Source of the DNA: a virus
Taxonomy: Duplodnaviria; Heunggongvirae; Uroviricota; Caudoviricetes
DNA: 8,881 nt
Strand: one strand, 5' to 3'
Virus record (IMG/VR): IMGVR_UViG_2529293214_000003
Span: 1 to 8,881 of that record
Shown piece by piece: positions 6,001 through 8,881 of the stretch; position 1 is the first letter of the stretch; each line of letters opens with the position of its first letter. A program made the position numbers.

Positions 6001-8881
6001 AACCCAGGTGAAACAAACATCCTGCCATCAGCAAGAATCAAGTACATACGTTCTCTGGATAGATGGAAAATCTATTGGATGCGGAAGGATATGAAATGGC
6101 ATCAGTACAGTACTGAACTTTCGCTGACTGATGCGCTTGAGCTTGTGCGTGCTGACCCGGATTGCTGCTTCTTCGGATGAGTGAAGAGACATTTGGGTGA
6201 TGGATGGTCGCAGAAGTGCGGCTTTTAATGTAATCGAAGAAAAGTAATCCTTGTAAAACTTGATTTGACTGTATTGTCACAAAGAAAGGAATCAACGATC
6301 GTTTCTTGGGTCTTGATTTGTTTTGACGATCAAATTAGTATTGCCTCATCAACTGTATGAGGCTTTTTTATGCAAACCAAAAGCTACACCATCAAAGCAT
6401 TTCAGGACTTCTTACAGATGCTTCCTGAGCTTGGTATCGTCAATGATGCTACAGCCCGCAATCTCCGTGACTCTTCCCTGCGCCTTCTTACTGTTCTTGG
6501 GTCGGATTTCACCGATGCCGATATCCGTGATTATAGCGTTGCCAACTTAGCAAGTTCGTACGCAGACTCAGCAGAAAGCAAACCCTCTGAATCATCTTTG
6601 CAGGCATACAAAAGCCGGATGCAAAGTGCTATTGATAAATTTATCTCCTACCAGAATGGTGAGATTAATGTGTCAGTTGGTGATGTAAATAAAAAAAAGG
6701 AGCGTAAAAAGATGGCACCTAAGAAGAAGGCGGTAGCTGACGTACAGGTTGGTGTAAAAACATTTGAACTGCCGATTCCATTGCGCGGAGATCTTATCGT
6801 CACCATTGGCAACCTGCCTCGCGACCTGACAAAAGATGAAGCCAAGCGTATCAGTCTGATTGTGGAATCTTTTGCGATGATTGATGGCGGAACAAAAGAA
6901 TAAAGCCCCGAGGGAACGGGGCTTTTTGGGTCGGAAATATATCCAGTATTTCCGAAGTGTATGGAGGATTACCTACCGCTACACCCTTGGCAACCGCAAG
7001 CCAAGGATAGCGGTTCTCCCAACAAACTACAACCTGTTCGGGTAAACAGGCTGTATACAAAAACAGGAGAAAAGCTATGGCTCACGATGTTAATCGCGAT
7101 GACTTCATCTACGAACACGACAAGCCGGTTTATGTGCGCAGTTACTGCCGCATACGTTTCGGTGAGCTCGAACATGTTCGTCAGCACTTCCGCTCTTATC
7201 CGAGCTGCTGAAAATAACTAAATCTCAAACCCGGCCACCGAGCCGGGTTTTCTTTGCCTTACGATCCCCCCACCTAAAAAACATAACCAATTGTATTTAT
7301 TGATGTAACTCGCTAAACCATGCAGTTATGATCCCTGCCCCATCACCTTCATCCTCAACATTTACAAAAATAAAATACCTTTGTTATCCATTATTTATAA
7401 CTTATTTACCATGAATTATAAATTAAGTTATTGACCACACCTATAACCTGGGTTATCTTTAAGCCATCAGCAGGACGCTGGTAGCCAAACGGAACAGATT
7501 GGCAGGCTCTTTAACTTCGATGTGGCGCTGACAAAGCGCAAACAGATACCAAACGAGATGGGTTTGGCGGTGATGTGAATTGCAGCAGCAACGACAGCAA
7601 CCAGAAGATCAGCATCTGGCGCATCACCACCAAAGCCATTTCACATGAGGAAAATATCATGACGGTAATCGTGTACGGGAAATCAACATTCGCAGGAAAT
7701 GCCAAAACTCGCCGTCATGAGCGGCGCAGAAAGCTGGCTATCGAGCGTGATTCCATCTGCAACATCATCGATTCGATCTTCGGCACAGACAGTGAGGAAG
7801 CTGTTCAGGAAGCCCCGAGAAAGCGTTTAAGCCTTTCTGAAAAAGCAATATCACTCGGAAGCCTTCGCTGCAAGAAGTCAAAGTCAGAAGAGGTCGAGCG
7901 TAAACAGAACCGTATTTACTACCGCAAGCCACGCAGTGAAATGGGTGTGACTTGTGTTGGTCGCCAGAAAATGAAATTAGGCAGCAAACCACTTATTTGA
8001 GAGGAATTAATATGTCATCAATCCGCTTAACTACGAGAATGAAAGAGGAAATCGCTCGTAACGCTTTAATTAAGTCCGGGGTGTTCACTGAACTTGAAGA
8101 AGTAACAAAGTTAAAGAACCAGCTTGCACTTGACGCCAGAGTTATTGCGTTTGGCGGTAAAAAGAAAACTGAGGAAGTGGATCAGTTATCATCCAAGTTG
8201 GTAGCTATAAGTGAAGAACTTGGAAAGATGGGATGTTCATTTTACTCATACGATGTTAGTTCTACTTCAATTTATCTGACTGTATCTGGCAGAAGGGTTG
8301 GATGGCATTCATATGGGAAAGACGGCAACGGCAAAGATATATTGCTCCCTACTCCGATCAAAGATAAATGCATGTTTGACGCAGAACACGAAATAACAAA
8401 AAGGTTTGATGAAATCTGCGCATTGCAACAAAAACTTGAAGCCAAGAAAAAGGATATCGAATCAAATGTATGGGCTGCTTTGAACTCAGTCACAACAGTT
8501 AAGCGACTTATTGAAGTTTGGCCTGAAAGCAAAGAATTGCTACCAAAAGAAGCAGATAAAGCAAGTACAGCACTTCCTGCTTTACGGGTAGAAGATTTGA
8601 ATAAGATGATTGGACTTCCTTCCGAGGCCGCATAGTCGGCCTTTATTTTTGGCATAAACAACAGAATAAATACTGCACTGTGTATTCATTCCAACGAGTG
8701 AATACACGGAGCAATGTCGCTCGTAACTAAACAGGAGCCGACTTGTTCTGATTATTGGAAATCTTCTTTGCCCTCCAGTGTGAGGGCCTTTTTATATGCA
8801 TACCAATAACGCTTCACTCGAGGCGTTTTTCGTTATGTATAAATAAGGAGCACACCATGCAATATGCCATTGCAGGGTGGC

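Follow-up and report, generated by a model that had tools for sequence, protein, structure and literature searches.

What does a short and highly structured segment between the cI operon and the leftward operator and promoter (oL/pL) of a lambdoid prophage do? The question is raised by IMG/VR virus record IMGVR_UViG_2529293214_000003 (Caudoviricetes), of which positions 1 to 8,881 were analyzed (8,881 nucleotides (nt), hereafter the window). A first-pass annotation of the sequence described three stem-loops behind a terminator, followed by an AGGAG motif, an open reading frame (ORF) of 44 amino acids (aa) with two Cys and several His, and a second terminator; it proposed a small RNA (sRNA), a structured 5' leader of a small protein, or protein-binding palindromes. 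All of these features are present where it had placed them (Table 1), and the ORF product contains two Cys (C24 and C44) and four His. On balance, we consider that positions 6902-7076 probably form a sense-strand 5' leader with a bistable Shine-Dalgarno (SD) switch, and that this leader belongs to a conserved family located behind accessory genes of enterobacterial prophages and islands.

About 30 distinct homologues of the leader were found in E. coli, Klebsiella, Yersinia, Proteus, and metagenomes or other uncultured sources. They were collected by BLAST, by pattern scans of viral and metagenome contigs, and from contigs encoding homologues of the downstream small protein; a pattern scan of genome contigs gave one chance match only, in a Chitinophagaceae coding region. 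For example, a distant BLAST search matched 6915-7050 at 71% identity to intergenic DNA without annotation that about 46 other E. coli genomes have between an ImmA/IrrE peptidase gene and the nin region. Read along the small-ORF strand, every homologue has the same succession of modules: the stop codon of an upstream gene that varies, then hairpins T and H1, the block GUAUGGAG (RGUGUAUGGAG), hairpin H2 closed by GGAG:CUCC, GGUUCUCC with a linker, hairpin H3 with the loop YGGGUW, the SD, an ORF of 44-50 aa, and a strong terminator. Hairpin T (family consensus AAAGCCCYG-loop-CRGGGCTTT, with a short U tract) is kept behind differing upstream genes in every homologue. The first-pass annotation had regarded this hairpin as the previous terminator; it is indeed terminator-like, but it is a conserved part of the element rather than a mere neighbor.

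Leaders that precede the window's type of protein are referred to here as group A, and those that precede a second protein type, family B, as group B. A covariance model (R1) built solely from 22 group-B leaders, with the window left out, matches the window over its full length (127.3 bits, E ~1e-35). The window carries all features of the model, namely T, H1, H2 (helices P2a and P2b) and H3 in order and both invariant blocks, and it also has the pseudoknot of the family, in which the internal loop of H2 pairs with the loop of H3.

As RNA of the + strand, 6898-7090 has a folding energy of -76.7 kcal/mol, compared with -48.3 +/- 4.1 kcal/mol for 200 shuffles (z = -6.93), none of which is as good. 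Folding energy alone does not give the strand, since the minus strand folds about as well. Three alignments carry the structure. In a MAFFT alignment of 16 sequences (A3) covering T, P2a, P2b, H3 and the pseudoknot, 94.4% of cells are paired versus 35-58% when the pairing is slid, and 11 pairs are double-changed. With H1 added, a MAFFT alignment of 22 sequences (A8) has 91.3% of cells paired versus 31-47% slid, with 19 double-changed pairs, and a model-based alignment of 35 sequences (A12) has 91.8% versus 31-48%, with compensatory changes at 25 of 46 pairs. Not one of 500 shuffles matches the observed structure values in A3, A8 or A12, and RNAalifold recovers T, P2a, P2b and H3 independently.

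The individual helices behave in the same way. The T stem varies as GCCCYG, GTCCTG/CAGGAC, GCCCTA/TAGGGC and ACCCTG/CAGGGT; H1 has compensatory changes at 9/9 pairs across the family; P2b covaries (C-G/A-U/U.G and G-C/A-U/G.U), as do five of the seven H3 pairs; and in homologues L026, L034 and L053 the inner helix of H2 consists of unrelated sequences that retain pairing. All three stems of the first-pass annotation are therefore kept in related prophages through compensatory changes in the approximately 30 homologues. The only helix without any pair changed on both sides is GGAG:CUCC, which is paired in 100% of cells and in which GGAG is invariant except for one G.U variant; this lack of double changes fits a sequence that is tied to the SD.

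The pseudoknot was first spotted by eye and lies outside model R1. The loop of H3 complements the internal loop on the 5' side of H2, and both change in concert, the variants being AAUCCA/UGGAUU, AAUCCA/UGGGUU, AAUUCA/UGAAUU, AACCCA/UGGGUU, AGUUCA/UGAACU, AACUCA/UGAGUU and AAUCUA/UAGAUU. It is paired in 95.5% of cells versus at most 59% slid, with compensatory changes at 3/6 pairs and a covariation score reached by 0/500 shuffles. In the window, where the H3 loop contributes the 3' strand at 7040-7044, five pairs are formed: U6970-A7044, A6971-U7043, C6972-G7042, C6973-G7041 and U6974.G7040. Two of these positions differ in L034, where both pairs survive through G.U and C-G changes.

Strand was assessed by counting G.U pairs, as for RNA of the + strand, against A.C pairs, which are G.U pairs on the other strand. 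The G.U:A.C tallies are 13:0 for P2a, 13:8 for P2b, 18:0 for H3 and 8:1 for the pseudoknot. Because G.U outnumbers A.C, we assign H2, H3 and the pseudoknot to the sense RNA. Among the three proposals of the first-pass annotation, the structured 5' leader of a small protein is thus the one borne out: the stems covary, the G.U wobbles lie on the sense strand, the same leader stands before small ORFs in every homologue, and the anti-SD is both invariant and able to pair with the SD.

The downstream ORF is a real protein-coding gene under purifying selection, since it matches phrog_21154 over its full length (residues 1-44 on profile positions 1-47, E = 1.9e-31) and pN/pS is about 0.1. The latter comes from the comparison with the L034 ORF, which differs by 10 synonymous and 5 non-synonymous changes (proportions of synonymous and non-synonymous differences, pS 0.39 and pN 0.047; pN/pS ~0.06-0.12). 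The window protein is WP_000929756.1 of PGAP. The downstream ORFs fall into two families, A (the window's, phrog_21154) and B (CxxC...CxC, 46-50 aa), which are not detectably related (hhalign probability 0.1). AlphaFold (AF2) predicts a three-stranded beta meander for family A (predicted local distance difference test, pLDDT, 73) and a beta-rich, Cys-clustered fold for family B (pLDDT 84); PDB fold searches with both models gave no significant match, and PDB sequence searches were empty. The C-terminal Cys varies within family A; zinc binding by the window protein is hence not implied. ORF A has no PADLOC and no Pfam match, and the 177-aa protein encoded upstream has no PADLOC match and only sub-threshold Pfam matches. 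Such proteins are easily missed: ORF A has only 3 matches among 5.8 billion proteins, and the group-B ORF in L003 is unannotated by PGAP.

How would such a leader act? The CUCC motif is complementary to both the upstream GGAG and the real SD, and the direction of its pairing in RNAfold, upstream or downstream, depends on the member. In the consensus fold, the anti-SD UCUCC, which is invariant in the family, pairs with GGAGG 6963-6967. In the minimum free energy fold of the window (-64.3 kcal/mol), U7014-C7019 pairs with G7066-A7071 and U7008-C7011 with G7074-A7077, which sequesters the SD together with the A of the start codon. When GGAGG:UUCUC is enforced, the fold has -55.4 kcal/mol, and the pseudoknot duplex adds about -6 kcal/mol.

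These complementarities suggest a switch between two states. In the ON state, GGAGG 6963-6967, a putative SD mimic, would pair with the anti-SD UCUCC 7015-7019 and close H2 (helix P2a), leaving the real SD free, and the pseudoknot 6970-6974 / 7040-7044 would stabilize this open form. In the OFF state, UAGC..UUCUCC 7008-7019 would pair with GGAGAA..GCUA 7066-7077, hiding the SD and the A of AUG. The balance between ON and OFF would set translation of the small protein, and it may be shifted by the order of co-transcriptional folding, by temperature, by a ligand, or by a protein or factor that binds the pseudoknotted fold. As a crude estimate, the energy of ON with the pseudoknot minus that of OFF has a median of -2.8 kcal/mol across 33 members. 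A candidate helper helix of the OFF state, GUGUA:UACAC, is compensatory in L090 and L093 and mismatched in the L050 clade, and is tentative.

The transcript would come from upstream. The first-pass annotation had seen no convincing promoter, and in 6300-7700 the only sigma-70-like site on the + strand is indeed pL at 7431-7459; 6900-7076 has no promoter-like site on either strand, and two other members likewise lack a promoter in their leaders. Candidate hexamers inside the leader (TTGACG/TTGGCA-like in the T, H1 and H2 loops; CTAACA-18-GATAAT in L003) were rejected, as they have no conserved -10 at a workable spacing and their counts equal chance. Both 6902-6925 and 7227-7256 were called as intrinsic terminators (hairpin plus T tract) by the terminator scan, and none lies between H3 and the ORF. 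The U tract of hairpin T has 3-5 U in most homologues and none in L099. Hairpin T probably serves the cI operon as a terminator-like hairpin, and it is at the same time the first conserved module of the element. Since this U tract is short, T starts at the upstream stop codon and the leader has no promoter, we infer that transcription most likely comes from read-through of T: polymerase would pass the weak hairpin at the end of the cI / DUF3024 / 177-aa operon and reach the leader, and the small gene would be expressed at a low level in lysogens.

The terminator behind the ORF has another origin. The first-pass annotation had assigned 7229-7256 to the ORF itself. Many lambdoid phages, in which its annotation is immunity-region terminator, and about 270 E. 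coli genomes share the stretch from the ORF stop codon into oL/pL; only six of these E. coli genomes have the leader and the ORF. CP027454 has an unrelated NYN-domain gene in this slot 3' of cI and DUF3024, and that gene is followed by the same terminator. The comparison indicates that the 7227-7256 terminator belongs to the phage backbone and probably insulates oL/pL. This origin, the pseudoknot, the membership of the upstream terminator hairpin, and the triad of SD mimic, anti-SD and SD were all absent from the first-pass annotation.

Several points weigh against a leader with an SD switch. We infer from sequence the transcript, its 5' end and the translation of the ORF, and efficient termination at T would make transcription of the leader rare. 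In group A, meaning the window and its close relatives, the pseudoknot uses a register one nucleotide away from that of group B. T (G.U:A.C 0:4) and H1 (3:5) have no wobble signal for the + strand, these counts being uninformative. The near-equal fold energies are only indicative, because the energy of the pseudoknot duplex includes no loop penalty, and the OFF helix is beyond covariation testing, because any CUCC complements any SD. Most E. coli group-B members have a weak GGGA instead of an SD. Finally, the switch gives T and H1 no role and leaves the identity of their loops, described below, unexplained.

Table 1. Coordinates of the leader, the small gene and the surrounding features in the window
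Feature	Position	Strand	Details
Replication genes, cII, cro	left part of window	-	
cI	5064-5801	+	helix-turn-helix (HTH) plus S24 peptidase
DUF3024 gene	5839-6180	+	directly 3' of cI
177-aa gene	6370-6903	+	function unknown
Hairpin T	6902-6925	+	AAAGCCCCG-AGGGAA-CGGGGCTTT, short U tract; begins at stop codon of 177-aa gene
Hairpin H1	6931-6955	+	TCGGAAATA 6931-6939 / TATTTCCGA 6947-6955; perfect 9-bp stem, 7-nt loop TATCCAG
Conserved single-stranded block	6956-6967	+	AGTGTAT, then GGAGG 6963-6967
Pseudoknot 5' strand	6969-6974	+	UUACCU, within H2 internal loop
Hairpin H2	6975-7014	+	14-bp bipartite: P2b plus inner helix, variable apical part
H2 outer helix P2b	6975-6981 / 7008-7014	+	ACCGCTA / TAGCGGT
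H2 inner helix	6985-6991 / 7000-7006	+	CCTTGGC / GCCAAGG
Anti-SD	7015-7019	+	UCUCC, inside invariant GGUUCUCC at 7012-7019
Hairpin H3	7033-7038 / 7045-7050	+	core CCTGTT / AACAGG, extendable to 7028-7055; loop CGGGUA
SD	7065-7071	+	AGGAGAA (AGGAG 7065-7069), 7 nt 5' of ATG
44-aa ORF	7077-7211	+	ATG 7077 to TGA 7211; MAHDVNRDDFIYEHDKPVYVRSYCRIRFGELEHVRQHFRSYPSC
Intrinsic terminator	7227-7256	+	hairpin 7227-7250, T tract to 7256; terminator scan
pL-like promoter	7431-7459	+	TTGACC 7431 / TATCTT 7459, spacing 17
nutL	~7506-7545	+	boxA GCTCTTTAAC, P22/H-19B-type boxB GCGCTGACAAAGCGC; 5' of N gene
N-family antiterminator	7575-8000		followed by Nmad5 gene
cIII thermoregulator, 5' part	8844-8881	+	at the start of cIII; Rfam RF01804, 47.7 bits, E = 5.5e-09

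A number of other identities were tried and rejected. A free-standing, trans-acting version of the sRNA that the first-pass annotation had suggested does not fit a segment with no promoter of its own on either strand, no terminator of its own right after the stems, no Rfam sRNA match and, by eye in alignment A7, no conserved -10 on the minus strand. A minus-strand sRNA of H1 and T was prompted by the 12-bp minus-strand form of H3 and the bidirectional look of T; the G.U tallies favor the + strand for H2, H3 and the pseudoknot, and again no conserved minus-strand -10 exists. A leader-peptide attenuator or upstream ORF starting at the AUG in GUAUGGAG is contradicted by reading frames that range from 5 to >40 codons, by the lack of an SD, and by L053 and L098, which have ACG at this place. 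For a type I toxin-antitoxin system, ORF A is hydrophilic with a predicted beta meander and no antisense promoter was found; the genuine hok/sok of L003 lies elsewhere. An N-utilization site (boxA, CGCTCTTTAACAA-like, plus boxB) would lie just 3' of pL or pR; the leader is 5' of pL, and TTCTCCCAACAAA is only loosely boxA-like. The CA-rich tract CCCAACAAACUACAAC prompted a comparison with the anti-sRNAs AgvB and AsxR, which map 3' of PR' and were detected elsewhere in L003; the tract is not conserved, since L044-type members have CCUGGCCAAUUGC.

Two other RNA-level explanations deserve weighing. The leader might be a sensor RNA, that is, a riboswitch or a binding site for a protein (the small protein or a host factor), with the pseudoknotted fold as the bound form and the SD switch as its output. 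A pseudoknot, invariant unpaired blocks and covarying helices are the usual signature of ligand- or protein-binding RNAs, and the leader combines a pseudoknot and covarying helices with invariant single-stranded blocks (GUAUGGAG, GGUUCUCC and CAA before H3); the modeled structure is compatible with a riboswitch. One leader also serves two unrelated proteins, which argues for a response to something besides one product and makes autoregulation by the product unlikely. But the conserved unpaired nucleotides are few and largely explained by the logic of SD mimic and anti-SD, the apex of H2 varies freely, no Rfam riboswitch or known aptamer matches, and the downstream genes hint at no metabolite; a sensor is consequently unlikely, if still worth consideration. 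Alternatively, the element could serve in RNA processing or stability, or give rise to a stable non-coding RNA. Cleavage of the polycistronic read-through transcript (e.g., by RNase III in H2, or by RNase E) would then leave H1 or the compact fold either as a shield for the small mRNA behind it or as an accumulating sRNA. The constant location between a terminator-like hairpin and a small ORF, with no promoter, would suit this, as would the long irregular duplex of H2; 5' stem-loops are known stabilizers of mRNA, and tandem cassettes such as those of L078 would need to be cut apart. No cleavage site can be inferred from the sequence, however, and a discrete sRNA would need a 3' processing event, because no terminator separates H3 from the ORF. 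Processing also leaves unexplained the invariant GGAG/CUCC pair and the complementarity of 7008-7019 to the SD and start codon, all of which makes it very improbable.

Nothing in the family is as unusual as the identical loops of T and H1. In these two hairpins, 30 nt apart, the apical 6-7 nt are identical within most elements and different between elements, the loop types being CGCTAA, CTCTAA, TTGACG, TTGGCA, CTGCAAA, its inverse TTTGCAG, and CTGGAA. They match in 7/13 distinct combinations, a value that 0/20000 permutations reach, and they invert jointly (TTTGCAG twice in L026 and YP3, CTGCAAA twice in L034). The same loop type occurs with both protein families (L034, L095), and twin-loop modules were seen in L003, L034, L051, L052, L063, L076, L090, L092, L095, L098 and others. 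The loops are unlike in the window (AGGGAA vs TATCCAG), L080, L086, L089 and L094, and differ by one nucleotide in L053 (TTTGCGG vs TTTGCAG). In the loci searched, no third site that complements these loops came to light, and no mechanism of conversion that could plausibly explain their identity was found. The variable H2 tip is often YUUGACR (L048, L050, L051, L052, L087, L092, L093, L095, L096, L098), which shares the hexamer of the commonest H1/T loop (UUGACG) and resembles a -35 box, with no matching -10, as well as UGACAA of P22-type boxB loops. In the DUF3024 gene, the 9-mer ACTGGATAT at 5931-5939 is the exact complement of the H1 loop and its closing bases (ATATCCAGT, 6939-6947); by chance alone, the window should hold about 0.07 matches of this kind, and it was not seen in other family members.

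Twin-loop identity is why a reading at the DNA level is retained for T and H1. On this reading, both would be palindromes bound by a protein or used in recombination, marking where a mobile cargo cassette has its left border, and their common centers of 6-7 bp would act like the identical overlap regions of recombination sites. Neither hairpin has an RNA-strand signal, the centers agree and invert together, homology between cassettes begins exactly at T behind differing upstream genes, and Yersinia phage YP3 retains T, H1 and 20 nt more without the remaining leader. Yet no recombinase is consistently linked to the element, sites 30 bp apart in direct orientation make no sense for recombination between them, and the hairpin arms are self-complementary rather than hybrid, so that no exchange occurred. 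The freely changing arms of H1 fit selection for a hairpin at least as well as a co-evolving operator, and some members, including the window, have unlike loops. We regard a DNA-level role of T and H1 as distinctly improbable. The protein-binding palindromes of the first-pass annotation fail for H2 and H3, which have G.U pairs and of which H3 takes part in the pseudoknot, whereas the mismatches of H1 and T carry no strand information. A more speculative idea, to which we give little credence, is a mobile regulatory RNA cassette: the T and H1 loops would be 'specificity loops' selected to be identical, and either a partner in trans (RNA, or a dimeric factor) would read them jointly, or a copying or recombination process would use them to carry the cassette to new places behind other cargo-gene terminators. 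The pseudoknotted H2/H3 domain would couple such an event to the synthesis of a small effector protein.

The window is the immunity region of a lambdoid prophage of the Shiga toxin (Stx) type, drawn in the lambda 'leftward' direction; this orientation is fixed by the + strand match to the lambda cIII thermoregulator, of which only the 5' part is present, cut by the window end. The studied segment occupies the cargo slot between the cI operon and oL/pL. The DUF3024 gene in front matches the PADLOC candidate defense family PDC-S43 (E = 7e-42) and has a rex-like position for a lysogen-expressed defense gene. The closest records to the window are Stx-converting phages and six E. coli chromosomes. 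The replication module at 720-4057 (-) encodes proteins of 797 and 315 aa, while the closest E. coli relatives, identical to the window across 6850-7350, have lambda-type O and P in its place (L001 2837-4473), which indicates a mosaic joint between cII and the replication genes.

The company kept by the leader depends on the protein family. The 177-aa gene usually stands before family A, also in P4-like islands. Family B nearly always has two genes in front of it, one for an XRE-type HTH protein and one of the ImmA/IrrE (M78/U49-like) kind, often at a prophage edge beside the integrase. In loci L087, L089, L090, L092, L093 and L095-L100, taken from about 1.2 kb 5' of the small ORF through its terminator, a recurrent cargo module is observed that comprises an XRE-type HTH protein (~117-120 aa), an ImmA/IrrE M78/U49(Lit)-like peptidase (~160 aa), the ~175-nt leader and a CxxC..CxC protein of 46-50 aa. 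L078 (1-700) has two leader and small-ORF cassettes in tandem; in front of the T hairpin of the second, the end of an ImmA-type gene (TATATGTAA) is still present, suggesting that the cassette was duplicated or that recombination took place just 5' of T. In the P2-like YP3 (L004, 2456-3059), a homologue of the 177-aa gene is followed by T, H1 and AGTGTATGGAGGATTACCTA at 96.6% identity; the homology stops beside the gin invertase gene, and YP3 holds a truncated copy of the element. The prophages of L003 and L034 hold several known regulatory RNAs besides the new leader, with Rfam matches to sok, STnc100 and AgvB (2581-2755, 7730-7982) in the former and to C4/isrK (532-731) in the latter.

How does the leader compare with known systems? 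The covariance-model search against known RNA families, proposed by the first-pass annotation, came back empty: with Rfam 15 (4227 covariance models, cmscan E-value mode), no hit at E <= 1 was obtained over 6900-7260 of the window, nor over the homologous leaders in L003, L092, L087, L090, L034 and L095, and the conserved strings of the leader were not found in the literature searched. By analogy, the functionally closest systems appear to be SD-sequestering leaders such as that of lambda cIII, with no shared sequence or architecture. Like the leader, the cIII element (RF01804, Lambda_thermo) lies in the leader and start region of a phage mRNA and has two alternative structures that hide or expose the SD and start codon; the leader differs in having no sequence or model similarity, a length of ~175 nt wholly 5' of the ORF, a pseudoknot, two extra 5' hairpins and an explicit SD mimic. 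More generally, riboregulators that sequester the SD (RNA thermometers and translational riboswitch platforms) share an anti-SD on the SD and an upstream competitor for the anti-SD (anti-anti-SD logic), but the leader has no ROSE, fourU or known aptamer consensus, and its pseudoknot joins an internal loop to a separate downstream hairpin.

The sRNAs of pathogenic E. coli prophages (AgvB RF02702, AsxR RF02703, STnc100 and Pas sRNAs) are likewise RNA elements in moron or cargo slots of lambdoid prophages of the enterohemorrhagic E. coli type. These are 50-200 nt, free-standing, with their own promoters and terminators, and lie 3' of PR' or beside Q or lysis genes (PMC4104026, bioRxiv 10.64898/2026.05.13.724894); Rfam finds them in L003 at 7730-7982 and not over the leader. 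Temperate phages also have modules of a transcription factor and a small ORF (TF-smORF), in which, as here, small phage proteins of unknown fold stand beside XRE-type regulators in accessory prophage positions and may regulate the state of phage or host. There the smORF is divergently transcribed from a promoter controlled by the transcription factor (Silpe et al. 2023, PMC10432266), whereas here the ORF is co-directional and set apart by a structured RNA, with an XRE and ImmA/IrrE pair preceding group B; no sequence relation was found.

We regard the leader as a new family of cis-regulatory RNAs with a pseudoknot and unexplained twin loops, and the concerted evolution of the latter poses the puzzle of how hairpin tips stay identical. 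If our reading is true, a structured RNA of ~175 nt with five helices and a pseudoknot, as yet uncatalogued, occurs across Enterobacterales prophages, P4-like islands and P2-like phages, where it would control tiny proteins that gene callers usually overlook. It would also offer a compact model of a switch made of SD mimic, anti-SD and SD and stabilized by a pseudoknot. Because the cargo slot of the cI operon is the position of rex-like genes for lysogenic conversion and defense, the leader probably governs a factor expressed in the lysogen.

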